This document shows, piece after piece, positions 8,384 to 35,003 of a stretch of DNA of 49,732 nucleotides. The notes beneath the pieces are model-generated. The model was given only the letters and a program-made list of their open reading frames with translations. It was not told the origin of the DNA and searched no databases. The stretch is taken from contig PCSU01000056.1 of assembly GCA_002771355.1 (NCBI GenBank), forward strand, positions 1 to 49,732, given 5' to 3'. Numbering within the stretch: position 1 is the stretch's first letter; each line of letters opens with the position of its first letter. The DNA comes from a candidate division WWE3 bacterium CG22_combo_CG10-13_8_21_14_all_39_12. GTDB taxonomy: Bacteria; Patescibacteriota; 4484-211; GCA-002791395. Position numbers and translations under genes: made by a program.

Positions 8384-8556
8384 CGGTACTTTTTTGCCGT
8401 TAGTTCATCCTTAATGGAGTGTACATAAAATCAAACCGTAGTACGGGCATGGATTGAAGGTAAGCAGTTTACTCATCGCATAGCTTGCAAACTGCCCTTT
8501 ACAATAATCTCAACTTACGGTATAGAGTTCATAAGAACAAACTTATAAAAAAAATT

Positions 8557-9099
8557 ATGAAGATTTACACACGAACTGGAGATAACGGAAAGACCTCTCT
8601 TTTTACTGGTGAGAGAACATCAAAAGATGCCTTACGAATAATATGTATTGGAACAATTGATGAACTAAATGCAGCAATCGGAGTCGTTGTTTCTCAACTA
8701 AAAAACACTCCTTCCTCTGAAGACACTGCCATCCGCTTGAGAACTATCCAACGCAAACTCTTTACTACCGGTAGTTCACTTGCAAACTCTAATCTTTCCA
8801 TAACACAAGAAGATATTAACAATATGGAAGCTAGTATTGATTACTTAACTGATCACCTACCAACACTTAACAATTTTATTTTGCCTGGAGGTAGTCAGGC
8901 TGCAAGTAGTTGCCATCTTGCACGAACTATCTGTAGAAGATGCGAACGGCTATTAGTAACTCTAAACAACACTGAGTCGATTGACCCACTTGTTTTGCAA
9001 TTTTTTAATCGCCTTTCTGACTATTTATTCACGATAGCACGGGCAATAAATATTAACGAAGGTACAGGAGAAATAATTTGGAATAGACATAATCTGTAA
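8557..9099 (+). CDS. pduO: PduO-type ATP:cob(I)alamin adenosyltransferase
   Basis: The N-terminus MKIYTRTGDNGKTSLFTGERTSKD is the hallmark PduO/MMAB-type start. About 180 aa with a helical-bundle-type sequence. I chose ATG 8557 rather than the ORF-track start at 8485. Confidence 0.85.
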   Translation: MKIYTRTGDNGKTSLFTGERTSKDALRIICIGTIDELNAAIGVVVSQLKNTPSSEDTAIRLRTIQRKLFTTGSSLANSNLSITQEDINNMEASIDYLTDHLPTLNNFILPGGSQAASSCHLARTICRRCERLLVTLNNTESIDPLVLQFFNRLSDYLFTIARAININEGTGEIIWNRHNL

Positions 9100-13769: not shown

Positions 13770-14909
13770 CTACACCTGCCCACGAGCACTTCGCGAAATG
13801 TTTATCAAAATCCCAACCGAAACAAGAAGTAATGTTAATGAAGTGCCCCCGTAACTTATAAAAGGAAGTGGTACACCAGTCAGTGGCATTAATCCAACCA
13901 TTCCCCCTAAATTCACCAACGTTTGAAACGCAATTGTAGTGGTAATACCAACAGCCAAAAATTTACCAAACGGATCTGAAGCTCTTTGTGCAATTGTAAT
14001 TCCTCGCCAAATCACAAATGCAAGTGCACCAATTACTAAAATCGCACCTATAAAACCTAATTCTTCACCGATAATTGCAAATATAGAATCAGTCGTAACC
14101 TCTGGGATATACTCATATTTTTGGCGAGAACTCCCTAGTCCAAGCCCCAATATGCCACCTGACCCCAGTGCAATAAATATTTGTGTAATTTGATATGAAA
14201 CTCCCTGAGGATCCGCCAACGGGTCCAGAAATGTGAAGATTCTTTGCCTTCTATAATCACTCGATAATGCATAAATAACTGCAGAAACAGCTCCTGATAT
14301 CCCAGCAAGACTTATCCAAAACAATGATGCTCCCGCAACAAAATAGACCATAAGCGCTGTTACAGAAATCAAAATTGCGTTTCCGAGATCAGGTTCTAAT
14401 GCCGTTAAAAGTAGAATTGTACCAACAACAACTAAAAATGGCTTGTGGGGCAATCCTCTTCGTATATCTTTATCAAACAAAGCAGCCAAATATATAACGA
14501 TGCTTAACTTAGCGATCTCAGATGGTTGAACTGATATGCTTTGCAAAAATGGCACCGGTATATATAGGCGCTGCTTTGCACCATACACCTCTTGTGAAAA
14601 ACCAGGGAGTAGTACGACAAGAAGTAAAATAATGGTTAAAACAATAAGTGGAAATGCAATCTTTTTTAAAACATGATAATCAATATTACTTACAATAAAG
14701 GCTCCAACTATACCAATAAATGCCCATATGCTCTGGTTTTTTAAAAACCAAAACTTGTCCCCAAATTCTTCAAATGCAACAACGACACTTGTGTTGTAAA
14801 CCATAAACACACCAAACAGCGTGAGTGCTAACACAACTCCAGCAAGCACATAATCTGTTACCGCAAAGGTTCTTATTTTAAAACTGTTCTTTTTTGATCG
14901 TACGGGCAT
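13770..14909 (-). CDS. ftsW: FtsW/RodA (SEDS) peptidoglycan polymerase
   Basis: About 10 TM helices. SEDS motifs QPSEIAKL, PDLGN, TDSIFAIIGEELGFIG and PLPFISYGGTS. Confidence 0.9.
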   Translation of the reverse strand: MPVRSKKNSFKIRTFAVTDYVLAGVVLALTLFGVFMVYNTSVVVAFEEFGDKFWFLKNQSIWAFIGIVGAFIVSNIDYHVLKKIAFPLIVLTIILLLVVLLPGFSQEVYGAKQRLYIPVPFLQSISVQPSEIAKLSIVIYLAALFDKDIRRGLPHKPFLVVVGTILLLTALEPDLGNAILISVTALMVYFVAGASLFWISLAGISGAVSAVIYALSSDYRRQRIFTFLDPLADPQGVSYQITQIFIALGSGGILGLGLGSSRQKYEYIPEVTTDSIFAIIGEELGFIGAILVIGALAFVIWRGITIAQRASDPFGKFLAVGITTTIAFQTLVNLGGMVGLMPLTGVPLPFISYGGTSLTLLLVSVGILINISRSARGQV

Positions 14910-16224
14910 GATTAATTACATCCTCAGGGAACATTTCTAAAGATTGAATTTCAAAAAGTTGCTCATTACTAGATACACTCCTTCCATCACCAATTGTAAG
15001 TAATAAAAATTCATCTTTGGTCAACCCGCCAACAGTATATTGAGATGAGATAAATTCAATTCTTTGATCTCCTCCAACATAAACCCCATTAGGGGGGGTG
15101 TGATTAATAATCACCTGTGATGCTTCAGTATTTCTTGAAATAACTCTCATTCCCTTCAGCTGTTTTGTGAAAAAGTATGGATCATCGATCATGGTATCGT
15201 TAATAGTAATACCAAAGCTTTTATAATGTTCGTTTAAAAGACTTGATCCACATACCTCCTGTTCAAGTTGAGTTATCATCTGGGCAGAAGCTGTAAACCG
15301 TGGATTCATCTCCTGGGCATAAACTCTTGCATGCTCATCTACCAAAAAATCCAATCCAAAAAAACCACGATATCCAAGATCACGCGCAATTGTTGCTAAC
15401 TTAACTGTTATTCTCCCAATGTCAAAAACAACGTCCTTTGTCTTAGTACTAAAATATGGTACAAGGTCCGTCCATACGTTTCCAACAGTACTACCCTCCA
15501 TACGAGCTAAGGGAACCTCCTCATTCATGTCATCATTTATTTGAATAAAAGGATACGTTTGATAAACTTCACTCTCTGAAACTACAGCATTAATAGTAAG
15601 TGTTGTTCCTGGTATAAACTGCGATACTTTTACCTTACGATTACTATACTGATCTCGCAAACTGAATAGATCCGACTCACTTTCAAGAAAAAATGTACGG
15701 TTCCCAAACCAACCTCTTTCAAACTGAACAACCATTCGTTCTCCAAATTCTTGAGACAATGAGTCAAAATGAAGATTATTTAAGTGCTCAACACGAGACG
15801 GCGGGTGAGGTATCTGGTGCTCCTTACACATGCGAACAAAGTTTAATTTATTTTCTAATAGCGAACTTACGGCTGGCGATGCATTCAAAGAACGTATTGT
15901 ACGAGATTTACCTAATGGCGTTTCAGCTATCACTTTCTCTAATGAAAATAATGGTTTAAAAAATATAATCCCCACCTCATCAACACTTCTTTTTAAGATA
16001 AACTCTTGAACTGCATCATGAAGTAACAATTTACGACTATTACGAACGATTATGTCTCCCCCCAATTCTTTTTCAATACAAAATACCGATACACCTTTTT
16101 CTATAAGCATATCAACAATATCGGTATAGTCGACGCAAATCACATGAAAATTCTCATATAAATCTTCAATGCCAAGGGCCCGTAAAGGATCTGTTGCTAC
16201 GTAAAATATTGGTAATCTTTCCAT
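14878..16224 (-). CDS. ATP-grasp family ligase of unknown substrate, occupying the usual murD position
   Basis: 448 aa. C-terminal ATP-grasp core FFGLDFLVDEHARVYAQEMNPRFTAS. Its stop overlaps the ftsW start by 32 nt and its start is 4 nt after the PLP gene. Confidence 0.7.
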   Translation of the reverse strand: MERLPIFYVATDPLRALGIEDLYENFHVICVDYTDIVDMLIEKGVSVFCIEKELGGDIIVRNSRKLLLHDAVQEFILKRSVDEVGIIFFKPLFSLEKVIAETPLGKSRTIRSLNASPAVSSLLENKLNFVRMCKEHQIPHPPSRVEHLNNLHFDSLSQEFGERMVVQFERGWFGNRTFFLESESDLFSLRDQYSNRKVKVSQFIPGTTLTINAVVSESEVYQTYPFIQINDDMNEEVPLARMEGSTVGNVWTDLVPYFSTKTKDVVFDIGRITVKLATIARDLGYRGFFGLDFLVDEHARVYAQEMNPRFTASAQMITQLEQEVCGSSLLNEHYKSFGITINDTMIDDPYFFTKQLKGMRVISRNTEASQVIINHTPPNGVYVGGDQRIEFISSQYTVGGLTKDEFLLLTIGDGRSVSSNEQLFEIQSLEMFPEDVINHARTIKKEQF

Positions 16225-16228
16225 TTGT

Positions 16229-17119
16229 TTAGGTTAGCACAACTACAACATGACTGTTTATCTTAAAATTTACAGTTTGAGCTTTTATAAATCCCGCATA
16301 AGCAAGCGCTCCCTCCTTTGAAAAATCAGTAACCCCATATTCTGTAAGTGTATTAATTGCAGATAAAACCTCATCATCTGTAACAATCCACCCGGATCCA
16401 TTGGTAGCTTTAACTGCATCAATTACTAACTCTTTTCGATCGGTCTGCCTTGCAACAATACCGGTAACAATACTTCGTGCCTTTTTTCTAAACGTTGTAT
16501 CAAATTTTGAAGCAATAGTATTAATATGTTGCGATTGCACAACATGAATCTGCGGCATACTTTCACGTGGCGTATCAGCCATAACAATACCCTCCCAAAA
16601 GCCCTGTACGGTTGTGCCAGAACTAACAGGAAAAAATATACTTACACCATCAACATTCTCACCCTGGGTTTTAATTTGTTGTTGTATTTCATCCCACAGT
16701 GCTTGGTAACCTTTGGTAGCATTACTATCTTTTGATTGTCTCACATACGGAATTGAGTGTTTATGGGAAAAATCTATAGCTCCTTGAATTGCCATTTCTT
16801 GTTTATGAATTATCGCTCCATAGCTAGACAATCTTTCAAACCGAACCGGTTCAATAAAAGGTGGTACAAAAGCATGCAGTGTAATTCCTGCCACCTGACA
16901 ATAGTACGCTGCAGCAACTGAAGCATTCCCCGAAGAAGATACTACAATTTCTCTATGATTCCCCTCAACCATATGGGCAATTTGCCATACCATCCCTCGC
17001 GACTTAACCGAACCAGTAACGTTATGATCTTCTCTTTTTAGCCATACATTTCCAACGTTTTGAAGTGGCGTTTCTGGCCAAGGTAAAGCGTAGTCATTTG
17101 CAAACTGCGAAGCATTCAT
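16229..17119 (-). CDS. Fold-type II PLP-dependent enzyme (Trp-synthase-beta/threonine-synthase/cysteine-synthase superfamily)
   Basis: PLP-lysine motif KREDHNVTGSVKSRG, plus SSSGNASVAAA and a phosphate-loop-like PVSSGTTV. 296 aa. Confidence 0.8.
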   Translation of the reverse strand: MNASQFANDYALPWPETPLQNVGNVWLKREDHNVTGSVKSRGMVWQIAHMVEGNHREIVVSSSGNASVAAAYYCQVAGITLHAFVPPFIEPVRFERLSSYGAIIHKQEMAIQGAIDFSHKHSIPYVRQSKDSNATKGYQALWDEIQQQIKTQGENVDGVSIFFPVSSGTTVQGFWEGIVMADTPRESMPQIHVVQSQHINTIASKFDTTFRKKARSIVTGIVARQTDRKELVIDAVKATNGSGWIVTDDEVLSAINTLTEYGVTDFSKEGALAYAGFIKAQTVNFKINSHVVVVLT

Positions 17120-17352: not shown

Positions 17353-18378
17353 TTAGATCGTTGCAATAAAAAGTCCAATAAAAGCACATAAAGCACCAGC
17401 GATCCAAAACCGCATGGTTACTTTTGTCTCATCCCACCCCATCGCTTCAAAGTGATGGTGTAGTGGTGCAATTTTAAATAATCTCTTTTCCCCAAGATAT
17501 CTAATTGAAAACAACTGAATAAGGCTTGATAATAACTCAATAACAAATACCCCTCCAATAATTGGTAACACAAGAGACTTTCCAATAAGTAAAGCTATTA
17601 CTCCCAATAATGCTCCAAATGCTATTGAGCCTGAATCCCCCATAAATAACCGTGCTGGATACACATTAAAATACAAGAACGCAAGGAGCGCACCCATAAG
17701 AACAGCTATAAATAAAATCACATCTCCTGAAAATGTATGTGGTACTGCTAACACCCAAAACGCAGATAATGCAATTAACATAAGTCCTGTTGCAAGACCA
17801 TCCATCCCATCAGTAATATTAAATGCATTGCTCGACGATACAATTACAAATGCAGCAAAGGGAATATATAACCACCCAAGACTTATATCATTAACTCTAA
17901 AAACACTGGAAAGAATCGGGATTTCAACTGTATGTAGTCCGGTGAATTTATATAAGAGGTATCCAATAATTAATCCTAATATTGTCTGAATAATAAGCTT
18001 CTCAAGGGCAGGAAGTGCACGAATCCTGCGTTTACGAACCCGAATCATTTTTCGAAAGTCGTCATACATCCCCAAAACTCCAAATGAGATAAGTGTTACA
18101 AACAAAATAATTGATGTCCAGTTTATAGAAAATGAAGTAACTACATAAAAAATTATAGAGAACAGTAATACTGACCCAAGGATAAGTACTCCTCCCCCTG
18201 TTGGCGTTCCGACTTTCCACCCATGCAAGTCATTAAATACCGTCTTGTTCCCGTGCATATCAACACTTTTTACAGGTTTTTGTCGAATATGTAACTTGTA
18301 AAGTGCATGTATAAATGGAATTGCAAGCGCAGCAGTGAAGATAAAAGATAGAAGTAATATCGCAAATATTTTGTACAT
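17353..18378 (-). CDS. mraY: Phospho-N-acetylmuramoyl-pentapeptide transferase MraY
   Basis: Polytopic membrane protein with NAFNITDGMDGLA, FMGDSGS and PLHHHFE motifs. Confidence 0.95.
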   Translation of the reverse strand: MYKIFAILLLSFIFTAALAIPFIHALYKLHIRQKPVKSVDMHGNKTVFNDLHGWKVGTPTGGGVLILGSVLLFSIIFYVVTSFSINWTSIILFVTLISFGVLGMYDDFRKMIRVRKRRIRALPALEKLIIQTILGLIIGYLLYKFTGLHTVEIPILSSVFRVNDISLGWLYIPFAAFVIVSSSNAFNITDGMDGLATGLMLIALSAFWVLAVPHTFSGDVILFIAVLMGALLAFLYFNVYPARLFMGDSGSIAFGALLGVIALLIGKSLVLPIIGGVFVIELLSSLIQLFSIRYLGEKRLFKIAPLHHHFEAMGWDETKVTMRFWIAGALCAFIGLFIATI

Positions 18379-18384
18379 TTTTTA

Positions 18385-20472
18385 TTATGTTGTATTTAGT
18401 ATCTTTAATCTTCGTACACCATCTCCACGCTCAGGATGAAAATGCACACTATACGCTTCTCCCTGTGGAGTTTTTTCTTGCCATTGTTGTTCCTGCAACG
18501 ACTTTTTAGCATCAACGACTTTGATTATAGCAGTGTGTGGCCCTTGTCGTACGGTTCTTTTATATGAAGAATGTGCATACTCAATCTCAGTAATAACACC
18601 ATTTTTTCTTGTGATACCAGTAATAATCAAGACATGGTCACCCGGTCTTGCTACACCCATGCGAATCATATCAGATTCTTGAATATCGTTGATATCAGAA
18701 ATGGGAACGGTGTGCTTATCATTTGTTAACATATCTGCACTCACATTTCTGTACCAACGATCCGGCATCAGGGATTTTCGTATCCTGCCAAAAAGGCTTG
18801 TTGGAGTAATAAGTTTAGTAAGACTTGGTATCTCTCTAGTTAACAGATATGCATTCAATACATGGAACACCATGCCAGAACACTCAATGCCAATCTGTTG
18901 CTGTTTCATAAATCTAAACACTTCGGCATCTGAATGGGTTTCAAGATCAAACTCGTTTTCCTGTGCCATTTCAAGTAATTCATGGCGAATCACCTCTGGA
19001 GAACCCTTGCCGGCGCTCCTTTTTATATTAAATCGCTTTTGATTAATAACGTATGGGATTTTTATGTTCTTTTCATTTACCGTAAAATTGATATATTCAC
19101 CTAAGCGTTCCCTCATCGCTCGAGTAGCCTTAGCATGCTTAAGCCTATCAATAAGTCTCTCATCAAGACCATCCATTCCACCTGACGACATCAAAACATA
19201 TACACACGGCAAAGGTTCTGAAATAAGCTTAAAAATTAACACGTCTTGTTGTGGGGCATACATGGTATGCTCATGCGTTTTTGAAATAGCTGCAACAATA
19301 TCTTTACCTGTAACTTTATAATCAGCATCTTTTTTGGCAGACACTTTGGGAATATATAGTTTATCTGCTGCACTAAAGCGATTGTCAAATTCTGTTAATA
19401 CGGCCGGATTTTTAAGCGATGAGGAAAACATGTCAAATACACCAACAACCGTACTGTCTGGCCATTTTTGTTTTATTGATAAAAGCACTGTCTGCGCTTT
19501 TACTGGAGAATGTGCCAAGTCCCTAACAATAACAGTGCCGGCATCGTCATAAATAACTTCCATCCTTTGTTTCAATCCAGCATAAGATTCAAGATGAGCC
19601 TTTACTTGAACAGAATCAAATCCAATCTCTGTTAACAACGTATATGCAGCTGTAAGATTATCTTTATTAAATTCCCCAAGCATGGTCGGTGTCCAGTTAA
19701 GATCAATTGTTTTAATATCTGATGAACCATCATGTGAATACGTTACAACCTTACATGGCGCATGAGATATGGCATCTTTAATGTTTTTACCATCAACATT
19801 TGCAATAAGAACACCATCAGAAGGAAGCTTACTTACTAACTCAATGTAGTTTTTTATATAAAGATCTTCTGTTGGAAACTGATCGTAATGATCCCATTCG
19901 GCTGAGGTTAGAACAAGATACTTTGGCTTATAGTAAAAAAACTTAGATTGCGGCGGTTCACTTGTCATTGGAGGTACTGGATACTCATCTCCTTCAACAA
20001 CTGACCATTTCCCTTGAGAAGAAACCAAACTCTCCTCATAGCCTACCATTTGCCCTCCCACCATATATGATGGATCTTGATGAAGCTGAGATAGCACATG
20101 AACAATTGCACCCGATATCGTACCTTTCCCAAAATTGCCTGCTACAACAATCGACTCATCTTTAACCACATATTCACCAAGAACTTCTGGGTATGAAACA
20201 GTTTTAATATGTAATACTTTAGCCTTTTCAAATTCTGGATTATGAGGGTCAACAATCAATGCATTCCCACCAACTACAACAAGATCCGTCCCAGGTTTCA
20301 GATTATCGGCATTATATGGAGACGAAATCTTGACGCCAATTTTCTCAAGATACGTACTATTTGGCGGATACACGTTTATGTCAGATCCTGAGACATTCCA
20401 ACCCTTTTTTAAAAACATATGAGCCAGGGCAGATGTTGCTTTGCCAGCTATTCCAATAATGTGTACATTCAT
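18385..20472 (-). CDS. Mpl-type Mur ligase (UDP-MurNAc:murein-tripeptide ligase-like) fused to a ~250-aa C-terminal Cys/His peptidase-like (NlpC/P60- or transglutaminase-like) domain
   Basis: The N-terminus HIIGIAGKATSALAHMFLKKGWNVSGSDINVYPPNSTYLEKIGVKI closely parallels E. coli Mpl (GSDANVYPPMSTLLEKQGIE). Also VEGDEY, AEWDH, RDLAHSP and LMSSGGMDGL. Variant P-loop AGNFGKGT. Extra C-terminal region (aa ~446-695) has GIECSGMVFHV ... PGDHVLIITG ... EYAHSS. Confidence 0.75.
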   Translation of the reverse strand: MNVHIIGIAGKATSALAHMFLKKGWNVSGSDINVYPPNSTYLEKIGVKISSPYNADNLKPGTDLVVVGGNALIVDPHNPEFEKAKVLHIKTVSYPEVLGEYVVKDESIVVAGNFGKGTISGAIVHVLSQLHQDPSYMVGGQMVGYEESLVSSQGKWSVVEGDEYPVPPMTSEPPQSKFFYYKPKYLVLTSAEWDHYDQFPTEDLYIKNYIELVSKLPSDGVLIANVDGKNIKDAISHAPCKVVTYSHDGSSDIKTIDLNWTPTMLGEFNKDNLTAAYTLLTEIGFDSVQVKAHLESYAGLKQRMEVIYDDAGTVIVRDLAHSPVKAQTVLLSIKQKWPDSTVVGVFDMFSSSLKNPAVLTEFDNRFSAADKLYIPKVSAKKDADYKVTGKDIVAAISKTHEHTMYAPQQDVLIFKLISEPLPCVYVLMSSGGMDGLDERLIDRLKHAKATRAMRERLGEYINFTVNEKNIKIPYVINQKRFNIKRSAGKGSPEVIRHELLEMAQENEFDLETHSDAEVFRFMKQQQIGIECSGMVFHVLNAYLLTREIPSLTKLITPTSLFGRIRKSLMPDRWYRNVSADMLTNDKHTVPISDINDIQESDMIRMGVARPGDHVLIITGITRKNGVITEIEYAHSSYKRTVRQGPHTAIIKVVDAKKSLQEQQWQEKTPQGEAYSVHFHPERGDGVRRLKILNTT

Positions 20473-20474: not shown

Positions 20475-21257
20475 TTAATGTGAATCACGTTTTATATTTA
20501 AAACGTCAACAATGCCTTTGTAACCATTAATATCTAACCACTCTTTATCTTTAAGAAGTTCTTGCAAAGACTCTTTATTAAGTAGATATTTGAGTGCATC
20601 AATATTTGTATTCCATTTTGATCCATCGAAAAATTCAAACCCAGAAAAATTCGTTTTGTAGAGTGAGGCTTGAGAATACGCTGTTCCCAAATATGCATAG
20701 GACAAGCCATCATTTTTTGCCCAATTAATTGCCTCTAACATCATGCGTGAACCCAATCCACTAGCTGATACTGCGGTGTTAATAAACGCCATCCAATAGA
20801 ACATACTGCCCCCAGATACCATAACAGGTATCATTCCTGCTATACGATCATCATCTTGTCGCTTCCACGTAAAAATCACATCACTCATATGATGAGAAAA
20901 CATTCGTTTTATTGCATGATCGGAAACCTTTGCATCCCCCATTACATCAATAACAAATTGGCGCATCCATAATAAATCTGTGTTATTAATTCTCACTGAA
21001 TCACTTGATTGAATGGTGAAATGATATGGCGATGTTTTTTTTATAACGCGACGATTTTCTGAAGAAGGTTCAAATTGATTAAGATCAATTCGCGTTGAAC
21101 GAGCAAGATACCATAAACCAATTTTCATTCTCGAAGGCAAAAAACCCATGTTAAGTAATGAAGCTTTATCTTCATTATTATCTTCTAAGGCCCACACTTG
21201 ATACGGAAACGCATAGTCATTATAGGAAGCAAGATGTTCTGAGAATAGTAACTTCAT
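20475..21257 (-). CDS. ATE/Bpt-family (arginyl/leucyl-tRNA--protein transferase-like) aminoacyl-tRNA transferase homolog
   Basis: 260 aa. GFLPSR...RIDLNQFEPSSENRRVIKK parallels Bpt GFRRSG...RV..F.PS.SQRR. The C-terminal LSYAYLGTAYSQASLYKTNFSGFEFFDGSKW parallels the ATE_C motif YLGY...YK..F.P.E....W. The N-terminal Cys cluster of Bpt is absent. Confidence 0.6.
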   Translation of the reverse strand: MKLLFSEHLASYNDYAFPYQVWALEDNNEDKASLLNMGFLPSRMKIGLWYLARSTRIDLNQFEPSSENRRVIKKTSPYHFTIQSSDSVRINNTDLLWMRQFVIDVMGDAKVSDHAIKRMFSHHMSDVIFTWKRQDDDRIAGMIPVMVSGGSMFYWMAFINTAVSASGLGSRMMLEAINWAKNDGLSYAYLGTAYSQASLYKTNFSGFEFFDGSKWNTNIDALKYLLNKESLQELLKDKEWLDINGYKGIVDVLNIKRDSH

Positions 21258-21335: not shown

Positions 21336-22802
21336 ATGGATAACAATTTTAGTATTGATAATCTCAAACAAGCAGTTCTTATGTATCACCCATCTGCAGA
21401 AATTGAGATAATAGATAACGCCTACAATTTTGCCGAGATGGCATATGCGGACATAAACAGAATTGACGATACCCCACTTATTGATCATGCCCTTGCAACG
21501 GCACTTATCCTTGCTGATATTCGAGTTGACGAACACACTATTGCAGCAGGTCTCCTTCATGACATCATCCATGAAACAGATCTTTCCCTCCAGGATATAG
21601 AAGGTGATTTTGAACCAGAAACCTTAAAACTCATTACTGACATTAGTAAACTTAAAACATATACGACAAAACAAAGTGAACTAGCCTATGCCCAACAATT
21701 AAGAAATCTATTTCTTGCTACAACTGAAGACATTCGTGTTGTTTTAGTACGACTTGCTGAAAAAATCCACAACTTACATAGCATTACAGCTCTTCCGCAA
21801 GAAAAAAGACTTGTTGTTGCTCAAAAAGCTATTGACATTTATGCACCACTTGCCGACCTATTGGGTGTTCAAAAATTTAAACGTGAACTTGAAGACCGAG
21901 CATTTGAGGTTTTAAACAAAGTAGAATTTGAAACCATAAAAAATTATTATGACTCCAGGTATGGTTCACAAGACAGTACGGTTAATGCGATCCACGATGA
22001 CTTACAGCAAACACTCGCATCACGAAACATGGATTTCAAACTGTATGGACGCATGAAGGCAAAATACAGTACCTATAAAAAATTCCTTGCAGAAAGCGAG
22101 GGGAAACAGACTCTTGAAGATTTTCTCGATACTATTTATGACAAAATTGGATTCACTATTCTTGTTAACTCAACGGAAGACTGCTACAGGAGTTTAAGCA
22201 CCTTGCGTCGTGAATTCCCTTCTGCACGGGATCTAGTCAAGGACTATATTATAAATCCCAAACCTAATGGATATAAAGCTATTCACACCTACATAACTAC
22301 AAAAAACGACATGCCTTGTGAGGTTCAAATAAAAACTCACATCATGCACGAATTTAATGAATTTGGGCCTGCTGCACATGCATTCTACAAACTTGTGGGT
22401 AGAAAACGTGGTTCCTTGCTTGAAACACCTGAAGAGAAAATAACTCAAATGAAAGAACTCTTACATTGGAAGGAAGGCATTCTTAGCGATAACGATGCGA
22501 CAACAAAACTAACAACTTTCAAAAAACATATTTATGTCTTTACCCCTAAAGCCGATGTTATTGAACTACCTCACGGTGCAACCCCAATAGATTTTGCATA
22601 CCATATTCACACTAAAATTGGCGATCGCATACGTGGAGCTCATGTTAATAATAAATTTGTCGGTATAGATCATGTTTTAGAGAATGGTGATGTATGCGAA
22701 ATCCTAACCCGTAACGGAAGACAAAAACCAAGCCGTGATTGGCTCAGAATAGCAAAAACTGCTGCAGCTCGAAGCCAGATTAGAAAATCACTTCAAGAAT
22801 AA
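21336..22802 (+). CDS. RelA/SpoT homolog (HD-like domain + (p)ppGpp synthetase domain + TGS), no ACT/RRM domain
   Basis: AAGLLHDIIHETD (HD), GRMKAKYSTYKKF, DYIINPKPNGYKAIHT, EVQIKTHIMHEFNEFGPAAHAFYK, and TGS IYVFTPKADVIELPHGATPIDFAYHIHTKIG. Opposite strand to the dcw genes. Confidence 0.88.
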   Translation: MDNNFSIDNLKQAVLMYHPSAEIEIIDNAYNFAEMAYADINRIDDTPLIDHALATALILADIRVDEHTIAAGLLHDIIHETDLSLQDIEGDFEPETLKLITDISKLKTYTTKQSELAYAQQLRNLFLATTEDIRVVLVRLAEKIHNLHSITALPQEKRLVVAQKAIDIYAPLADLLGVQKFKRELEDRAFEVLNKVEFETIKNYYDSRYGSQDSTVNAIHDDLQQTLASRNMDFKLYGRMKAKYSTYKKFLAESEGKQTLEDFLDTIYDKIGFTILVNSTEDCYRSLSTLRREFPSARDLVKDYIINPKPNGYKAIHTYITTKNDMPCEVQIKTHIMHEFNEFGPAAHAFYKLVGRKRGSLLETPEEKITQMKELLHWKEGILSDNDATTKLTTFKKHIYVFTPKADVIELPHGATPIDFAYHIHTKIGDRIRGAHVNNKFVGIDHVLENGDVCEILTRNGRQKPSRDWLRIAKTAAARSQIRKSLQE

Positions 22803-22833: not shown

Positions 22834-23955
22834 TTACGTAGTATATTGATTGATTAGTTCACGAACAACAGCTTGGTCACTCCATGGGATTTCTGTTTTA
22901 CCATCTAGATTCATGGATTTCTCATGTCCCTTTCCAGTAATTAAAACAATGCTTCCCTCCGTTGCTTGTGATAGTGCAAATGCAATTGCTTCTTTTCGAT
23001 TGGGCTTAATAAAATAAGTTTCATCACGTACACCACCTGCATTGCCTGCCCCTAAAGCAATTTGTTGACAAATTACGTTCACATCTTCTGTGCGTGGATC
23101 TTCAGCAGTTATCACTGTTAAATCAGCATTTTTTACTGCAATTTCACCCATTGTTGGACGTTTGTGATAATCACGCTCACCAGCACACCCAAAAACAACA
23201 ATTACCTTACTTTCGGTTGAGACCATGGTACGAACAGAAGTTAACGCAGTATATAAACCTTTTGAGGTATGTGCAAAATCTACGATTACTTTAAACTTGT
23301 CATTATATACAACCTCCATTCGCCCAGAGATTGCAGTTACTGACTCGATACCTTTTTTAACAAACTCTTGTGGTACTTGTAAGGCAAGTGCAATCGCTGC
23401 TGCTAGTTTTGCATTTTGCGTATTATAGCTCCCCAAGAGATTAACATCGATTCCCTGAAGCACTCCATCCGAAATATTCTCAGCACTAAGCGAAATATCA
23501 CCAGTAGCTAAAAATGAAAGTTTTGTCTTTTGATAAGCTTCAAAACTTTTATGGTAATCCAAATGCTCGTGTGTAATATTTGTTAGTCCAGTTACATTAA
23601 AATGCACACCCGCAAACCTGTTTTGATCAATTGCATGGGAAGTTACCTCCAAAACAACATGGGTCATCCCTTCATTTACCATGCTACGTAATATTTTTTG
23701 AACATCCCATGCCCCGGGACTTGTTACATGAAACCCTGTATCCATCTGCTTATCTCCAAACTGTGCAGAAATGGTTGATAATAAGCCAACGTTAATTCCT
23801 GCTTTACTTAAAATTGCATGCGTATAAATAGATGTCGTTGTTTTACCATCAGTGCCTGTAATACCAATCACAGTCAGCTTACGAGAAGGGTGACCAAAAT
23901 ATATAGTGGCAATCCACGCACGAAGTAAATGAAATATGTTTTTGATTTTTTGCAT
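22834..23955 (-). CDS. murE: MurE-like Mur ligase lacking the N-terminal (UDP-MurNAc-binding) domain
   Basis: 373 aa. The P-loop VIGITGTDGKTTT starts at about aa 28. Also EVTSHAIDQNR, ITHEHLDYH, VDFAHTSKG, GCAGERDYHKRPTMG, TAEDPRTED and TGKGHE, all MurE signatures. About 100 aa shorter at the N-terminus than typical MurE. Confidence 0.8.
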   Translation of the reverse strand: MQKIKNIFHLLRAWIATIYFGHPSRKLTVIGITGTDGKTTTSIYTHAILSKAGINVGLLSTISAQFGDKQMDTGFHVTSPGAWDVQKILRSMVNEGMTHVVLEVTSHAIDQNRFAGVHFNVTGLTNITHEHLDYHKSFEAYQKTKLSFLATGDISLSAENISDGVLQGIDVNLLGSYNTQNAKLAAAIALALQVPQEFVKKGIESVTAISGRMEVVYNDKFKVIVDFAHTSKGLYTALTSVRTMVSTESKVIVVFGCAGERDYHKRPTMGEIAVKNADLTVITAEDPRTEDVNVICQQIALGAGNAGGVRDETYFIKPNRKEAIAFALSQATEGSIVLITGKGHEKSMNLDGKTEIPWSDQAVVRELINQYTT

Positions 23956-23957: not shown

Positions 23958-24977
23958 TTATAATCCTTTCTTTAATCGTTCAAGTTTTACATATATCCAC
24001 ATGGGCCAATATTTCCATACTTTAATTGGATAATCGAGTGTATTCATCCACCGAACTCTTTTACCACCGAAACCTTTTTTAAAGAATGTTAACCCTGCCC
24101 TCGGATGGTTTGGATTGTCAGTTGGTGCAACCCCCCAAAAATCATACGTTTTTGCTCCTCGTTCCTTTGCACGTTTAATAAGTGCCCACTGCAAGGCATA
24201 CTGTGCATGTTCATCTCCATATTCATTGGTAGACCCACTATGATGATAAAAAGCCATCTGGTCATAAAACACTAAAAGAGATGCAGCGTGTACTCTTCCT
24301 TTGTGCTCGGCAATCAAAATCTCAATAAGTCCATCTTTGTTGAATGCTTCAAACTCATCAATAAAAAATTGTTTATCATACGAAACAAAACCCTGACGTT
24401 TTACTGTTTCATTATATACGTCAAAAAGTTTACATAGGTCAGAAACATCCGTTGATATGCGTACTGTCACCCCTTGTTTTTGAGCCTTTCGTACATAATA
24501 GCGCGTATTCTTACGCATTGATGAAAGTAATTCATCTTCAGATTGCGTAAGATCAAGAGTCATGGTGTACTCGGCATTAAAGTACATGGGAGCCTTCCTA
24601 TAACCCATACTAATATATTCCTTAATTTTTTGATCATCGTGAATAAGTGGTGCACGAAAACGCATAAAATCAAGATTTTCTTTTTGAGCATACTCAAGAA
24701 TATGCGTATGAAAAGCATTAAACTGTGCCTTATCCTCCCAATCAATAGTTGGTCCTGCATGCGAAACTATATAGTTTGCCCGTCTAGATTTCACCACAAC
24801 ACATAAATTGGCACCAACGAGCTGGTCATCATCATATAGTCCGAGACGAAGGACCGTATGTCCCTGGCTTTCCTCAAAATCTCCCCAATTCCACGCCTGA
24901 AGCATAGATTGTGGGTTATGTGAACACACTAATGCCCGCCACTCATTTTTATTTGTTACATCATGTACTGTTAACAT
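23958..24977 (-). CDS. FemAB/FemX/MurM-family peptidoglycan peptide-bridge aminoacyl-tRNA transferase
   Basis: 339 aa. MRKNTRYYVRKAQKQGVTV and YHHSGSTNEY...AQYALQWALIKRAKERGAKTYDFWGV are typical of the FemABX family. Confidence 0.8.
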   Translation of the reverse strand: MLTVHDVTNKNEWRALVCSHNPQSMLQAWNWGDFEESQGHTVLRLGLYDDDQLVGANLCVVVKSRRANYIVSHAGPTIDWEDKAQFNAFHTHILEYAQKENLDFMRFRAPLIHDDQKIKEYISMGYRKAPMYFNAEYTMTLDLTQSEDELLSSMRKNTRYYVRKAQKQGVTVRISTDVSDLCKLFDVYNETVKRQGFVSYDKQFFIDEFEAFNKDGLIEILIAEHKGRVHAASLLVFYDQMAFYHHSGSTNEYGDEHAQYALQWALIKRAKERGAKTYDFWGVAPTDNPNHPRAGLTFFKKGFGGKRVRWMNTLDYPIKVWKYWPMWIYVKLERLKKGL

Positions 24978-24979: not shown

Positions 24980-26227
24980 TTAAGCTCCCTTTTCTTCTTT
25001 GTACTCCTTATACAAAGAAATTACTAACGAAACGTCTTCATCGGTCATTCGGGAATACGTTGGCAAGTTTACCACCTGTGATGCAACATCTTCTGCTACA
25101 GGAGCATCACCTACGGTATACCCTAATTTAGACAGATCCACTTCACATGGGGCTACTACTTGATCATACCAATCACCCAAAATAACGCCGCGCCGTGAAA
25201 AATACTTCTTCATTTCTGTTGGACTGTTTTCTAAAATGGCATAACGTAACCAAACTCGTTCTGCTGTATCAATTTGAACACTTTGTATTCCTGCATCATA
25301 ATACTTCGATGCAATTTCAGTACGACGATTCGTGGACACCTTAAGGGAAGAAAGCTGGGACATTGCAAGTTTAGCCAAAACTCCAGGCATTTTTTTTGTA
25401 GTCCATAGTGGACGAGGTCCTGACATCTTCTCATCAAAAGACGTGGCTTTTGATATTAAACCTATATTTTGCAACACATAATGCCATGCTTTTCCGAATG
25501 ATAACCAATGGTATGTTACTAGTGATATCCACGTTGTGATCGGATGTAATAGCTGTTTTTTGATCCACCACCAACCCATCTTTTTTCGAGTTTCCACCTG
25601 CTGTCTATATTTGTTTTGTTTTCCAAAATCTTTTAAGACAACAATACCTCCAAACACTGAACTGACGATTTTGTCACGCCCAAAACTAAACACACTCGCG
25701 TCCGCTATTGTCCCCACTGGTTTGCCATCACGGGTAGCGCCAAGGGCATGGGCACAATCTTCGATAACAATAATCCCCTTTTCGTGCGCAAACGATAAAA
25801 GTTCATCAAGATCCTGAAACGGCAATCCAAACGTATGCTGAACAATAATTGCTTTCGTCTTTTTTGAAACATGCTTTTTTACTTCCTCTAAACTCACATT
25901 CAAGGAATCCTTTTCAATATCAACAATAACTGGAGTCGCGCCAACCCAATGAACAGGATTGGTGACTGCAACACAGGTAAACCCCTGAACAATAACCTCG
26001 TCACCTTTGCCAATACTATATGTAGAAAGAATATCCGCTATACCTGCCCGTGCACTATTAATTGCAAACACTGATTCTTTTGAGATAGAAAGAATATCTG
26101 AAAACACACTTTCTAATTCATGTACTGGTTCCGTGTCACGCCATTTCCATGGCTGTAATAGCAATGCTATAGCAAGATGTACATCCTCTTTTGAAATATT
26201 TGGGGATAAGCTTGGGGTGATAAGCAT
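24980..26227 (-). CDS. DegT/DnrJ/EryC1/StrS-family PLP-dependent sugar aminotransferase
   Basis: GDEVIVQGFTCVAV, VIEDCAHALGA, and the PLP-Lys motif FSFGRDKIV. 415 aa. Confidence 0.85.
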   Translation of the reverse strand: MLITPSLSPNISKEDVHLAIALLLQPWKWRDTEPVHELESVFSDILSISKESVFAINSARAGIADILSTYSIGKGDEVIVQGFTCVAVTNPVHWVGATPVIVDIEKDSLNVSLEEVKKHVSKKTKAIIVQHTFGLPFQDLDELLSFAHEKGIIVIEDCAHALGATRDGKPVGTIADASVFSFGRDKIVSSVFGGIVVLKDFGKQNKYRQQVETRKKMGWWWIKKQLLHPITTWISLVTYHWLSFGKAWHYVLQNIGLISKATSFDEKMSGPRPLWTTKKMPGVLAKLAMSQLSSLKVSTNRRTEIASKYYDAGIQSVQIDTAERVWLRYAILENSPTEMKKYFSRRGVILGDWYDQVVAPCEVDLSKLGYTVGDAPVAEDVASQVVNLPTYSRMTDEDVSLVISLYKEYKEEKGA

Positions 26228-26228: not shown

Positions 26229-27515
26229 TTATGAATTGCTAGTCAATTTCGTCATTGTTTGTAAATTAATCAAAGACCTTCCCTCAAAAAGTACTGCAAC
26301 TGATCCGACCTTGTTAACCATTTCATCATAGAGTTGTTTAGCTGATACAACAAGCTTCGCATGAGCATAATACTTGGCGTGGAAAGGTTCAACAATATAA
26401 AAACCATCAACACGTGGGAAAATTTCTTGGTCCAACGCACTGTTTACAGATTGCGATTCTTCGCCTAACTCATATACTCCCGTACAAACCACAATATGAC
26501 GATCAGCAGGGATTGAAACAAGTTTCTCGACAGCCGCTCGAAATCCTGTGGAATTGCTATTATACGTATCATCAATAACAGAAAGATTATCTGAAACCTT
26601 TGTTATTTGCATACGTGATTGTTGTGGATTAATATGTGAAATCCCTTGCGCAATCTGATCCTCGGTCATTCCCAGCAATGCACCAACAACACGTGCGGCC
26701 TGGACATTTTGATCAACGTTTCGTGACTCATACGTCATTATTGCAACATCAATATTTTTGACAAGCTCCTCAACATTTTTGTCTGCAACATTTAATACAG
26801 CTGTACCGTTTACATCAAGTGCATCAATCAACTCCATTTTTGCTTTTATAATATTTTCCTTACCACCAAAAAGACCAGCATGCTGTTCATTAAGTCCTGT
26901 CATAACACCAATTTTTGGTTTCATCGCATCAGCGACAAGCTTTATTACCCCTTGATAATATGCTCCCATTTCTACGACATATACATCATATGAAGCATCT
27001 AAGTATCGTAATGCATGGAGGGCAACACCAATCTCACCATTGGCACTTTTGGGTGTTCTTAAAACTTTAAATTTTTCACTTAATACGTCGGCTATAACTT
27101 CTTTTGTTGTGGTCTTTCCGTACGATCCAGTTACACCAATCACTATAAGGCTCGGAAACATAGCCCGCTTACGTTTTGCCAGAAACAATAAAAATCGTTC
27201 AACAAAAAACGATGGTATTGACCATAAAAACACAGCCGCTGCTATAGCGAATGGTCCTCCAATAACAACTAAAAACGCTACACATACAACCCAAAATAGC
27301 GATAGCTTTGGAATAGTGACTAGTGGGAAAAGTACTATTACTGCAGCAGTAAGAGAAATAAGGACAATCTTAATCGTAATCTTTGGACGTTTGCGTTGAC
27401 CTGATAGTAATAAACGGACTCGATCTTGTGGAGTTAAAGACTGAATAAATAACACCATTCGATCTCGTCTATATCCTTTGAGTTGCCATTGATATAACCA
27501 GTAAATAAAATTCAT
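26229..27515 (-). CDS. murF: MurF-like Mur ligase with the N-terminal domain replaced by a ~110-aa membrane anchor (2-3 TM helices)
   Basis: VIGVTGSYGKTTTKE, ANGEIGV, VVEMGAYYQG, NEQHAGLFG and IDDTYNSNSTGFRAAVEKL are MurF signatures. The N-terminus IVLISLTAAVIVLFPLV...LFWVVCVAFLVVIGGPFAIAAAVFLW is hydrophobic. Confidence 0.8.
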   Translation of the reverse strand: MNFIYWLYQWQLKGYRRDRMVLFIQSLTPQDRVRLLLSGQRKRPKITIKIVLISLTAAVIVLFPLVTIPKLSLFWVVCVAFLVVIGGPFAIAAAVFLWSIPSFFVERFLLFLAKRKRAMFPSLIVIGVTGSYGKTTTKEVIADVLSEKFKVLRTPKSANGEIGVALHALRYLDASYDVYVVEMGAYYQGVIKLVADAMKPKIGVMTGLNEQHAGLFGGKENIIKAKMELIDALDVNGTAVLNVADKNVEELVKNIDVAIMTYESRNVDQNVQAARVVGALLGMTEDQIAQGISHINPQQSRMQITKVSDNLSVIDDTYNSNSTGFRAAVEKLVSIPADRHIVVCTGVYELGEESQSVNSALDQEIFPRVDGFYIVEPFHAKYYAHAKLVVSAKQLYDEMVNKVGSVAVLFEGRSLINLQTMTKLTSNS

Positions 27516-27521: not shown

Positions 27522-28250
27522 TTATGTGCGTTGGGTAAAACGCATAATTTCTTTAACCACAATCTCAGGATGTTCGTATAAAAACGAATGCCCGCGCCCC
27601 TCTACTGCGACAAGCGTTGATTGCGGTATTTTCTCACTCCATACTTTTGACATGGTAAATGGTGTTGCCTTGTCTTGCCTTGCCCACAACAATAATGTTG
27701 GTACTTTAATCCCCATAAGATCTTCACGAATGTCTTGCGATAAAACTCGACTTAGGATGGATTTTAGTCCTTCTGGTGCCTGCGCATAATCATAAGAACC
27801 TGTACCTTTTGTCCATAGTTTTGTAACACCAGACTTAAAGACAGAAATTATTGGTAAAGAAAATATAATAGATCCCCACGAGGCCAACTGTTTTTTTATG
27901 TCTAAAATCAGGTTTTTGGTCCGTACACCTGACGGATTAACCACCACTAAATGTGAAGCAAGAGTTGGATACTTTGCACTACACAATGCACAAACAGCCC
28001 CACCAAAGGAATGTCCAACCAATACGACAGGTGCCTTAGCATTGTTTACTATGTACTCTTCTAACCATTGTGCGTACTCAGAAATACCCCAATCTGTTGG
28101 AGGTACATTCGTTTGTCCAAAACCGGGCAAGGTTGGAACTAATACACGGTATCCTAGACCATTGAGTTCATCTTCAAGTTTTTTAAGTGGATTTATTTTA
28201 TATGTCCACCCGTGAACAAGAACTATTGTTACATTATTCTTGATATCCAT
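27522..28250 (-). CDS. Alpha/beta-fold hydrolase
   Basis: VLVHGW, nucleophile elbow VGHSFGG, and C-terminal GRGHSF. 242 aa. Confidence 0.8.
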   Translation of the reverse strand: MDIKNNVTIVLVHGWTYKINPLKKLEDELNGLGYRVLVPTLPGFGQTNVPPTDWGISEYAQWLEEYIVNNAKAPVVLVGHSFGGAVCALCSAKYPTLASHLVVVNPSGVRTKNLILDIKKQLASWGSIIFSLPIISVFKSGVTKLWTKGTGSYDYAQAPEGLKSILSRVLSQDIREDLMGIKVPTLLLWARQDKATPFTMSKVWSEKIPQSTLVAVEGRGHSFLYEHPEIVVKEIMRFTQRT

Positions 28251-33644: not shown

Positions 33645-35003
33645 ATGTCAAATCACGATATTCAAGATGTTGTTTCATTAGCTAAACGACGGGGTTTTGT
33701 ATTCCCCAGTTCCCAGATATATGGTGGTTGGGAAGCTACCTATGATTTTGGACCACTGGGTACTGAAATCTTACGAACACTTAAAAACCTATGGTGGGAG
33801 AATTTTATTCACCGTAAACCAAATGTTGTAGGGTTAGATAGTGCTATTATTAGCCATCCTCGTGTATGGGAAGCAAGTGGACATGTGGATTCGTTTGCCG
33901 ATGTGATGGTTGAAGACAAGAAAACTCAAAAAAGATATCGTGCAGACCACCTCATTGAAGACACACTTAACATCCCAACCGACGGGTTTACCCCCCAGGA
34001 GTTTGACGAGCTTATTGGAAAGAACAATATTAAAAGCCCTGACAATAATGAACTATCGCAAGCTAAGTATTTTAATCAACTGGTAGAGGTACAAATTGGC
34101 ACAACCTCTGACACAAAATCTACAGCTTACTTACGCGGTGAAACCTGTCAACCAATTTTCTATAACTATGGTTTAGTAAAAGATTCAATGCGCATGAAAC
34201 TTCCATTTGGTGTTGGACAAATTGGTAAGGCATTTAGAAATGAAATAAAGGTTGGACCATTTTTCTTTAGAACGCGCGAGTTCGAACAAATGGAAATTGA
34301 AATGTTTTTACATCCGAGTGAGGCTTCCGAACAGTTAGAAACATTTAAAACTGAAAGTATGGAATGGCTCACATCCCTTGGGATTTCAAAAGACAAACTT
34401 AAGTTCAGGGAACAGGAATTTAAAGAACGTGCACATTACAACAAAATCGCAACAGATATTGAGTACAGTTTTCCGTTTGGATGGAAGGAGTTTCAAGGGA
34501 TTCACTACCGTGGTGACTGGGATCTGACTAGGCATGGAGAGTTTTCAGGACACTCTTTTGTGGAAAAAATCGAAGAGACTGGAGAAGAGTTTGTGCCTCA
34601 CATTGTAGAATATTCAATTGGTTTAAGTCGTCTCTTACTTGTCCTTTTATCCGACGCATATACTAAAGAAGAAGATCGGTTAGTCTTAAAAATAGCTTCT
34701 CACCTTGCGCCTTACAAAGCGGCAGTGTTTCCATTAGTTCGAAACAAACCAGAAATTACTGAACGAGCAAAAAAAATATTTGCAGACCTTAATCTACACA
34801 CACCAACAGCATTTGATGACAGGGGCAATATTGGTAAACGATATTTATCTCAAGATGAAATTGGTACTCCATTTTGCGTAACAATAGATTACGACACACT
34901 TGATGATGGAACAGTAACTGTTAGAGACCGCGACAGTAAAGAACAGATTCGAATCGCAGAAACAAAATTAGTGGACTATATCTTAACAAATACCTCTGTT
35001 TAG
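33645..35003 (+). CDS. glyQS: Glycyl-tRNA synthetase (dimeric GlyQS type, class II)
   Basis: LAKRRGFVFPSSQIYGGWEATYDFGPLGTEI, FRNEIKVGPFFFRTREFEQMEIE, and a C-terminal anticodon-binding region. 452 aa. Confidence 0.93.
   Translation: MSNHDIQDVVSLAKRRGFVFPSSQIYGGWEATYDFGPLGTEILRTLKNLWWENFIHRKPNVVGLDSAIISHPRVWEASGHVDSFADVMVEDKKTQKRYRADHLIEDTLNIPTDGFTPQEFDELIGKNNIKSPDNNELSQAKYFNQLVEVQIGTTSDTKSTAYLRGETCQPIFYNYGLVKDSMRMKLPFGVGQIGKAFRNEIKVGPFFFRTREFEQMEIEMFLHPSEASEQLETFKTESMEWLTSLGISKDKLKFREQEFKERAHYNKIATDIEYSFPFGWKEFQGIHYRGDWDLTRHGEFSGHSFVEKIEETGEEFVPHIVEYSIGLSRLLLVLLSDAYTKEEDRLVLKIASHLAPYKAAVFPLVRNKPEITERAKKIFADLNLHTPTAFDDRGNIGKRYLSQDEIGTPFCVTIDYDTLDDGTVTVRDRDSKEQIRIAETKLVDYILTNTSV

Follow-up and report, generated by a model that had tools for sequence, protein, structure and literature searches.

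The 49,732-nt window analysed here, contig PCSU01000056.1 of a candidate division WWE3 bacterium, is a 38%-GC segment of the candidate phyla radiation (CPR) type (Patescibacteria-like) with a complete division and cell wall (dcw) cluster, from mraZ to ftsZ, on its minus strand. Within this cluster lies the gene for a homologue of the ATE/Bpt aminoacyl-tRNA transferases, called the ATE-like protein below. We class its family as a Bpt-derived subfamily in which the specificity determinants have changed and the gene context, related to the wall or to D-amino acids, is conserved. The best reading, to which we assign a probability of about 0.5, is that the protein would be a tRNA-dependent transferase that uses a peptidoglycan peptide or a D-amino acid as acceptor. 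That the enzyme depends on tRNA is likely; that its acceptor is related to the wall, and is not a protein, may be rated at roughly even odds.

The relationship to ATE/Bpt is statistically real but distant. The original prediction had called the protein an ATE/Bpt homologue in a cell-wall cluster, on the strength of an ATE_C-like ending (YAYLGTAYSQASLYKTNFSGFEFFDGSKW, residues 187-215) and an F-x-PS-x-x-x-RR segment (F62-E-P-S-S-E-N-R69-R70). Both are read in the translation of the open reading frame (ORF), and the homology call and the dcw setting are correct. The Pfam model ATE_C (PF04377) gives 24.8 bits (E 3.7e-5) against a gathering score of 25; many family members clear ATE_C alone, and several relatives reach 27-44 bits. 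In the same Pfam search the window protein was not matched by ATE_N (PF04376), nor by FemAB (PF02388) at E<=1. Six NCBIfam Bpt "arginyltransferase" models match it at E 8e-11 to 4e-4, with 20.5-41.7 bits that do not reach the equivalog cut-offs of 170-267. For a comparison at the profile level we used a Bpt set of ten database sequences, fetched with a Bpt sequence that served as bait only; these proteins are named arginyltransferase or Asp/Glu leucyltransferase in the database and carry ATE_N and ATE_C. The family profile (38 sequences) aligns with this set in hhalign at 97.4% probability and E 9e-12 over 181 columns. In the PDB, chains of ATE1 are detected by the Bpt profile with E values of 1e-26 to 1e-22, but not by the family profile at E<=10; the family is therefore much farther from ATE1 than Bpt is. 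PDB searches with the single sequence and with the family profile returned weak, generic GNATs only, and the relationship to ATE1 is therefore drawn from the fold and the profile-profile comparison.

The AlphaFold2 (AF2) model of the ATE-like protein, built on the family alignment (pLDDT 89.3, pTM 0.87), shows a predicted fold of the ATE1/Bpt/FemX type. Its best PDB match in Foldseek is human ATE1 (E 2e-8, TM 0.58), the query-normalised TM values for human, yeast and K. lactis ATE1 being 0.55-0.62. Next in the ranking come L-PGS, A-PGS, MprF, FemX and the L/F-transferase Aat, so that the top matches, at E 2e-8 to 1e-5, are mainly aminoacyl-tRNA-dependent transferases of the GNAT type. With eukaryotic ATE1 (8tzv, 7tif, 7wfx) the family shares the two-lobed GNAT-type fold and the catalytic Tyr-Lys pair, but ATE1, at twice the size, differs by its Zn/Fe-S Cys4 site, by R80, which serves acidic N-termini, and by the acidic pocket in which it binds Arg (E277). 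FemX, FemAB and MurM (PF02388) belong to the same superfamily, have the catalytic Lys and act on wall precursors, the acceptor class proposed for the family; however, the ATE-like protein is about 80 residues shorter, its TM values with them (0.42-0.49) are below those with ATE1, and its sequence is closer to Bpt. Aat and the C-terminal domain of MprF, also tRNA-dependent members of the GNAT superfamily, match the model at E 1e-7 to 7e-6, and similarity to them was undetected at the sequence level; Aat and the aminoacyl-phosphatidylglycerol synthases use other acceptors, basic protein N-termini and lipid head groups, respectively.

The residues that the family has kept are those expected of an enzyme that handles charged tRNA. 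In an alignment of 38 members, on which all conservation counts given here are based, Y200-K201 is invariant (38/38) and is aligned with Y216-K217 of Bpt and Y303-K304 of klAte1 and scAte1. The mutation K304A inactivates klAte1; the same lysine is K305 of FemX, it is preceded by an aromatic residue in both enzymes (Y303 in klAte1, F304 in FemX), and in ATE1 and FemX alike the Tyr-Lys pair serves to stabilise the tetrahedral intermediate (PMC9351520). In tRNA-dependent transferases the acceptor arm of the tRNA is bound by a positively charged alpha3 helix (PMC9351520). The family segment aligned with that basic helix is S66-E67-N68-R69-R70-(I/V)-x-(R/K)73-K74 (R69 in 37/38, R70 in 38/38, R/K73 in 37/38 and K/R74 in 32/38), its basic residues sit on a predicted helix 66-74 in the AF2 model and the alignment, and its Bpt counterpart reads RQQKRILKRN; the window protein has K73-K74. 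R56, close to a further key arginine, R53, is aligned with an Arg found throughout the superfamily (R71 in Bpt). The F-x-P-x-x-x-x-R-R pattern of the basic helix, the Y189-L190-G191 motif and the C-terminal W215 are shared with Bpt as well, and the two groups are similar in size (about 235-260 residues) and homologous over about 180 columns.

An alternative explanation is that the protein is an acyl-CoA-dependent GNAT, for example an N-acetyltransferase that modifies D-amino acids or wall precursors and needs no tRNA. The Pfam model Acetyltransf_6 scores 26.2 bits, over its cut-off of 22, and Acetyltransf_1 20.4 bits, under its cut-off of 20.7; NCBI calls some members "GNAT family N-acetyltransferase", and the weak PDB sequence matches are ordinary GNATs. 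In addition, the His that reads the tRNA end (klAte1 H178, FemX H206, Bpt H118) is not conserved: the equivalent position 106 is Phe in 26/38 members and Met in the window. In klAte1 this His contacts the C75/A76 phosphates, and H178A reduces activity without abolishing it (PMC9351520). However, Acetyltransf_6 is itself a FemAB-type GNAT domain, tRNA-dependent transferases predominate among the top structural matches, and the invariant Tyr-Lys pair and the basic helix are specific to these enzymes. The pyrophosphate-binding loop of acetyl-CoA GNATs has the form Q/R-x-x-G-x-G/A. This motif was not found at the equivalent stretch of the family alignment, which reads (R/S)-(S/N)-L168-G169-x-x-M172-M173 and has a single Gly. 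We therefore consider an acyl-CoA donor improbable.

Other parts of the Bpt/ATE1 machinery have been lost or altered. The window protein has no Cys residue, and the Bpt/ATE1 Cys cluster is therefore absent, as the original prediction had said of the N-terminal cluster of Bpt; no column of the family alignment has a conserved Cys, and the Cys region of Bpt falls into a gap or is unaligned. The first 31 residues (MKLLFSE...Y..FPY.VW) are family-specific. The GFRRSG motif of Bpt is G38-F39-L40-P41-S42 here, with Pro at position 41 in 36/38 members. The second Arg of that motif, R80 in klAte1, has been assigned to recognition of the acidic N-terminal side chain, and R80E is inactive (PMC9351520). 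The aminoacyl pocket has changed too: in ATE1, whose donor is Arg, it consists of S255/S273/E277/Y289, and in Bpt, whose donor is Leu, of A/A/Q/V, but in the family of Y154 (36/38), M172 (29 M, 6 L, 3 I) and A176 (31/38), with L, A, I or V at position 188, the counterpart of ATE1 Y289. Two donor-pocket positions are thus bulkier than in Bpt (Ala/Ala replaced by Tyr/Met), and we infer that the pocket is smaller and uncharged and may fit a donor of small size, for instance Gly, Ala or Ser.

With each GTDB species represented by one genome and scanned with a 12-sequence alignment, relatives of the ATE-like protein are confirmed in at least 559 species. A word-index search returned 126 close clusters of family proteins, and a hidden Markov model search of 1.84 billion representatives gave 194, 461 and 1276 clusters at 50% identity for E<=1e-30, 1e-10 and 1e-3, respectively. 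Public annotations of family members are "hypothetical", "GNAT family N-acetyltransferase" or an automatic "arginyltransferase", and JGI labels many of them arginyl-tRNA--protein-N-Asp/Glu arginylyltransferase. A description of the family was not found in the full-text literature; the amidoligase survey of Iyer et al. (2009) may treat such neighbourhoods. For the gene neighbourhoods we clustered the ORFs within 6 kb on either side of the gene in 84 non-redundant loci from the best-scoring relatives, 14 of them low-GC and CPR-type and 70 other; gene calling in the high-GC loci was crude. The non-CPR loci are mostly labelled Verrucomicrobiota, others Calditrichota, KSB1, Fibrobacteres, Methylomirabilota and Limnocylindrales. 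The label Gammaproteobacteria occurs on some CPR-like loci, and the label Bifidobacterium on some that are Verrucomicrobia-like; the titles of L010, L013, L041, L046, L075, L076, L087 and L088 (Gammaproteobacteria, Bifidobacterium, Akkermansia muciniphila) are at odds with the gene content or GC of these records. The labels of the metagenome-assembled genomes (MAGs) in this collection are unsuited to phyletic claims. In a rough, Bpt-rooted neighbour-joining tree the CPR clade stands apart from the rest, and the loci without an alanine racemase gene (alr) are scattered within the alr-linked clade.

In CPR the gene is embedded among Mur ligase genes. A Mur ligase lies directly downstream of it in 12/14 CPR loci and directly upstream in 7/14; among the ligases scanned, the downstream ones are of the MurC type and the upstream ones N-truncated MurE. 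As the original prediction had noted, the window ORF abuts its neighbour, its stop lying 2 nt before the start of a 695-residue ORF of the MurC/Mpl type. This neighbour had been called Mpl-like; it is a ligase of this kind, but it scores higher as MurC than as Mpl, under both cut-offs (Table 1). In CPR relatives the spacing between the two genes is -29 to +66 nt. The common CPR order is ftsI, murE', ATE-like gene, murC, murB, murA, ddl, murF, mraY, where murE' is the truncated form; in the window subgroup the order is ATE-like gene, murC, a 234-283-residue Cys/His protein (which the window has as a fusion with MurC), mraY, a pyridoxal phosphate (PLP) enzyme and an ATP-grasp ligase. The truncated murE directly precedes the ATE-like gene with a 4-nt overlap in L011, L013, L014, L016 and L021. 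Linkage to the dcw cluster had been suggested as a check of the original prediction, and it is conserved in CPR, whereas most carriers have alr as the partner instead. The stress laid there on an adjacent FemAB gene is not borne out: the gene is real and lies 2.7 kb away in the same cluster, but the adjacency is confined to the window, its closest relative L001 and one unrelated locus.

Two side observations concern the CPR loci. In L012 the truncated murE is followed by a gene (7375-8004) for a 209-residue protein that resembles N-acetylmuramoyl-L-alanine amidases (CwlD/AmiA models) and has no signal peptide or membrane segment; the ATE-like gene comes next, with a 4-nt overlap. A gene for glycine-tRNA ligase (GlyRS) lies just upstream of mraZ in 5/5 CPR carrier loci that show this region (the window; L011:1433-2791; L012:552-1817; L014:958-2229; L005/L006:1-171), which is a weak hint at a Gly donor or plain synteny.

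Outside CPR the partners are alr and a gene for a PurD-like ligase. In 51/70 non-CPR loci alr is on the same strand as the ATE-like gene, and in 45/70 it is directly upstream, often with a 4-nt overlap. The racemase is bona fide (TIGR00492, 345 bits against a cut-off of 168). The ligase, an ATP-grasp protein of 430 residues found nearby in 42/70 loci, is a paralogue of PurD: its 100 bits fall short of the cut-off of 288, it has no matching N-domain, and in the PDB it matches structures of PurD (E 1e-23). In three loci the ATP-grasp gene and the ATE-like gene are immediate neighbours. No similarity was detected between this ligase and the ATP-grasp ligase of the window, and by sequence the two would be analogous partners, not orthologous ones. 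Plasmid and phage collections gave no family member and one distant Bpt-like match, on a Pseudorhodobacter replicon; one family copy is found on the 144-kb plasmid pVm1 of Oleiharenicola sp. Vm1 (CP180536; L003/L018). This plasmid carries the PurD-like/alr/ATE-like trio, with a diaminopimelate-epimerase gene 9 kb upstream and TrwC and type IV secretion genes nearby, and the module can therefore be accessory and mobile.

We also observed a tRNA-dihydrouridine synthase (Dus) gene, convergent and just downstream of the ATE-like gene, in 15 Verrucomicrobiota-type loci (for example L046:2052-2912, minus strand, and L007:9907-10989, with MnmA and LeuRS nearby); this adjacency is probably lineage synteny. 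In one protein of 809 residues, P0196 (L089:8001-10430), the family domain is fused to PPDK_N (an ATP-grasp of the phosphoenolpyruvate-synthase type) and to a phosphoenolpyruvate-utilising mobile His domain; the architecture is PigC/Rph-like, and the gene context is uninformative.

Could the protein nevertheless be an ordinary Bpt, a Leu/Arg-tRNA-protein transferase that marks N-terminal Asp or Glu for ClpS/ClpAP, with an incidental wall neighbourhood? The best relatives of known function are Bpt models, the JGI names of many members say as much, ATE1 is the best structural match, and the catalytic Tyr-Lys and the basic helix are retained. However, the Bpt models score far below their equivalog cut-offs, PDB ATE1 chains are missed by the family profile and found by the true Bpt profile, the Arg that reads an acidic N-terminus has become Pro, and the Cys cluster is absent. 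The family's partners, murC/murE or alr and not N-degron genes, are conserved across phyla, and clpS, clpA and aat were seen in none of about 85 neighbourhoods, within 8-10 kb on either side of each gene; the window shows no clpS or clpA either. The ordinary function is thus unlikely. Conserved adjacency to wall genes and the loss of the parts that recognise an N-terminus therefore make a wall peptide the probable acceptor rather than a protein. The original prediction had proposed such a non-protein acceptor, and the comparison of loci and residues (murC/alr linkage, replacement of R80 by Pro) lends it support that the unconserved link to FemAB does not.

The favoured reading is that a soluble aminoacyltransferase of the ATE/Bpt lineage was retargeted from protein N-termini to the peptide chemistry of the cell wall. 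It would take a small amino acid, of the size of Gly, Ala or Ser, from charged tRNA and join it to a free amino group of a building block of the peptidoglycan peptide; candidate acceptors are the diamino acid that MurE adds, through its side-chain amine, or else a single D-amino acid or a short peptide of D-amino acids. The transferase may belong to a kit of three parts, together with a PLP enzyme that provides a D-amino acid and an ATP-dependent carboxylate-amine ligase. In most phyla the PLP enzyme would be alanine racemase and the ligase the PurD-like ATP-grasp protein; in the window these parts may be played by the ThrC-like PLP enzyme of the CPR cluster and by the truncated MurE, MurC and the ATP-grasp ligase. 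In wall cross-links, D-amino acids are added by ATP-grasp ligases, and L-amino acids and Gly by tRNA-dependent Fem ligases (PMC2922099). The putative kit matches this published division of labour for cross-bridges, which favours transfer of a small amino acid to the amine of a wall peptide or D-amino acid. Operons that pair a racemase with an ATP-grasp ligase to supply D-amino-acid parts of the wall are known from the D-aspartate ligase Aslfm with its aspartate racemase and from VanT/VanC-type pairs. The alr and PurD-like genes beside the family follow the same logic, but the known systems have no tRNA-dependent transferase and use ligases of the Ddl or Asl type, whereas the ligase of the family loci is a PurD paralogue.

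Several observations weigh against this reading, besides the missing tRNA-end His. The assignment of donor and acceptor is inferred from the alignment and the gene neighbourhood, and the pocket was mapped on a profile alignment at 19% identity. The analysis covers the 80 loci with the best scores out of at least 559, and the MAG taxon labels of these loci are unreliable. Most carriers have alr and not the dcw cluster as the partner; since alr has a housekeeping role, its linkage could reflect operonic convenience or regulation, and the PurD-like ligase could conceivably be the organism's only PurD. In 16/70 non-CPR loci neither partner is present; the neighbours there include a FemAB-like gene (L033), an M3 oligopeptidase, an S9 peptidase and a phosphohexomutase, and also the unrelated GrpE, MazG and a glycoside hydrolase. 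A consistent tRNA gene near the family was not found in 60 loci, and to our knowledge no interpeptide bridges are known in the walls of Verrucomicrobiota.

Both conserved partners, Alr and MurC, consume L-Ala, and the tight overlaps of stop and start codons could mean translational coupling. One could thus assume that the protein is a regulator that answers charged tRNA (Ala or Gly) by binding or by aminoacylation and thereby tunes Alr or MurC, balancing L-alanine between translation and the wall. However, the full catalytic constellation is invariant across divergence to about 30% identity, as is typical of an enzyme, and we know of no precedent for a regulator in the ATE1/Bpt/FemX superfamily; we consider this very unlikely.

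The gene order in the window bears on a more specific possibility for CPR. On the minus strand the cluster begins with mraZ, mraW, an ftsL-like gene, ftsI, a weakly murA-like gene, an alpha/beta hydrolase gene and a murF-like gene; it continues with a DegT aminotransferase gene, femAB, the N-truncated murE, a relA/spoT homologue on the opposite strand, the ATE-like gene and murC, and ends with the C-terminal extension of murC, mraY, the genes for the ThrC-like PLP enzyme and the ATP-grasp ligase, ftsW, murG, ftsQ, ftsA and ftsZ. The RelA/SpoT gene separates murE from the ATE-like gene in the window genome only, and the ATE-like gene therefore heads the downstream transcription unit there; co-translation with MurC is probable, the two genes leading the string ATE-like/murC/mraY/PLP/ATP-grasp/ftsW. 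A promoter scan was at chance level (27 matches against 29 expected). In L009 the RelA/SpoT homologue is on the same strand, upstream of murE. The ATP-grasp and PLP genes fill the interval between mraY and ftsW, the usual place of murD; the ATP-grasp gene is conserved in L001 and L009, and the PLP enzyme recurs in the dcw clusters of CPR carriers (the window, L001, L005, L009, L013, L016, L021 and L022). No murD was recognised in the CPR dcw clusters examined (window, L001, L009, L011-L014), and no ddl in the window cluster (9142-33468). The source contig ends just past the left end of the window, and the right flank beyond the window (glycosyltransferases, AbiEii) has no murD, ddl or clpS.

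The C-terminal domain of the window MurC (the ligase proper being residues 1 to about 450) is a free ORF of 234-283 residues in relatives (L001:12123-12878, L005:10158-10862, L009:5671-6522 and L016:10103-10807), with the motifs GKG(S/T)P, RIG(I/V)(D/E)CSG, HVL and Y-x-HSS kept. It was unmatched in Pfam, NCBIfam and the PDB, the word-index search gave 3 homologues, and its AF2 model has a pLDDT of 47.7; from its conserved Cys/His motifs it looks like an NlpC/P60-type domain.

These features could be taken to mean that CPR bypass MurD, or salvage wall peptides. L-Ala from Ala-tRNA would be joined to the alpha-amino group of D-Glu, free or N-terminal in a gamma-D-Glu-diamino-acid peptide; the MurC/Mpl-type ligase would load the preformed peptide on UDP-MurNAc, and MurE and MurF without UDP-binding domains would extend it off the nucleotide. 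The junction with murC fits this idea, as does the absence of a recognised murD among the scanned ligases and at the mraY-ftsW position. MurE lacks its N-terminal domain, MurF lacks it or has a membrane segment instead, there are peptide-hydrolase-like partners (the Cys/His domain fused to MurC and the cytoplasmic amidase in L012), the ancestral acceptor of ATE/Bpt is the alpha-amine of an acidic residue, and a smaller donor pocket suits Ala. However, murD could sit elsewhere in the genome, and the non-CPR carriers, which are the majority and presumably have a full Mur set, are tied to alr and not to loss of murD. Furthermore, L016 encodes both a full-length (495-residue) and a truncated (421-residue) MurE, the Arg of ATE1 that reads the acidic side chain is lost, and the ligase scores as MurC above Mpl. 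We regard a MurD bypass as doubtful. A wider proposal, in which the CPR stem peptide is made off UDP-MurNAc by way of tRNA-made L-Ala-D-Glu or of salvaged gamma-D-Glu peptides that the enzyme re-caps, is lengthened by MurE and MurF and is loaded by the MurC/Mpl-type ligase only when complete, and in which the trio with Alr and the PurD-like ligase in Verrucomicrobiota and others makes a new wall peptide containing D-Ala, would be a long shot; if true, CPR would make the precursor of their peptidoglycan without MurD and in part with the help of tRNA.

The coordinates of the window features are collected in Table 1. The DegT/PseC-type aminotransferase and the alpha/beta hydrolase are both conserved in L001, and their presence in the dcw cluster may point to a wall precursor whose sugar or peptide is modified. 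Elsewhere in the window, four tandem genes for the large subunit of ribonucleotide reductase, two of them with ATP-cones, adjoin a cobalamin adenosyltransferase gene, a paralogy unusual for a small genome. A 331-residue protein consisting of the LPG_synthase_TM domain (MprF membrane/flippase type) alone, without the tRNA-dependent synthase domain, is encoded inside an envelope cluster of glycosyltransferase, UbiA and Wzy-like genes. At the window edge lies an AbiEi antitoxin gene, with the AbiEii toxin gene just beyond it (L091:10789-11547).

Table 1. Positions of the ATE-like gene, its cluster partners and other features in the window
Feature	Position (nt)	Strand	Remarks
ATE/Bpt-superfamily aminoacyl-tRNA transferase homologue	20475..21257	-	260 aa, Cys-free, ATG start
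MurC/Mpl-type UDP-MurNAc ligase + 245-aa C-terminal domain	18385..20472	-	MurC 209 bits, Mpl 168 bits
C-terminal domain of MurC	18385-19122	-	conserved Cys (IGI[D/E]CSG) and His
MraY	17353..18378	-	same co-directional gene string
Fold-type II PLP enzyme (ThrC / Ser-Thr dehydratase-like)	16229..17119	-	far under all cut-offs
ATP-grasp ligase	14878..16224	-	448 aa, PF02655
RelA/SpoT homologue (HD + synthetase + TGS)	21336..22802	+	between murE and ATE-like gene
MurE-type ligase without N-terminal (UDP-binding) domain	22834..23955	-	373 aa, murE model from about position 95
FemAB-family aminoacyl-tRNA transferase	23958..24977	-	PF02388, 143 bits
DegT/PseC-type sugar aminotransferase	24980-26227	-	between murF-like and FemAB
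MurF-like ligase	26229..27515	-	N-terminal domain replaced by hydrophobic membrane-type segment (aa 44-113)
Alpha/beta hydrolase	27522-28250	-	between murA-like and murF-like
Glycine--tRNA ligase	33645..35003	+	divergent from mraZ
Ribonucleotide-reductase large-subunit genes (four)	132-8341	-	720/703/600/581 aa
Cobalamin adenosyltransferase	8485-9099	+	
LPG_synthase_TM protein	40858-41853	-	331 aa
AbiEi antitoxin	48679-49461	+	

Non-ribosomal, tRNA-dependent peptide bonds in bacteria are known from Fem cross-bridges, lipid aminoacylation, N-degron tagging and a few antibiotics, and the Fem-type cross-bridges are found mostly in Firmicutes and Actinobacteria. A Bpt-derived family in at least 559 species would extend this list, and the reading favoured here would predict undescribed wall or D-amino-acid peptide chemistry in the phyla that carry it. 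For CPR, it would bear on the way in which the wall precursor is built or salvaged in a cell that is reduced and depends on a host.

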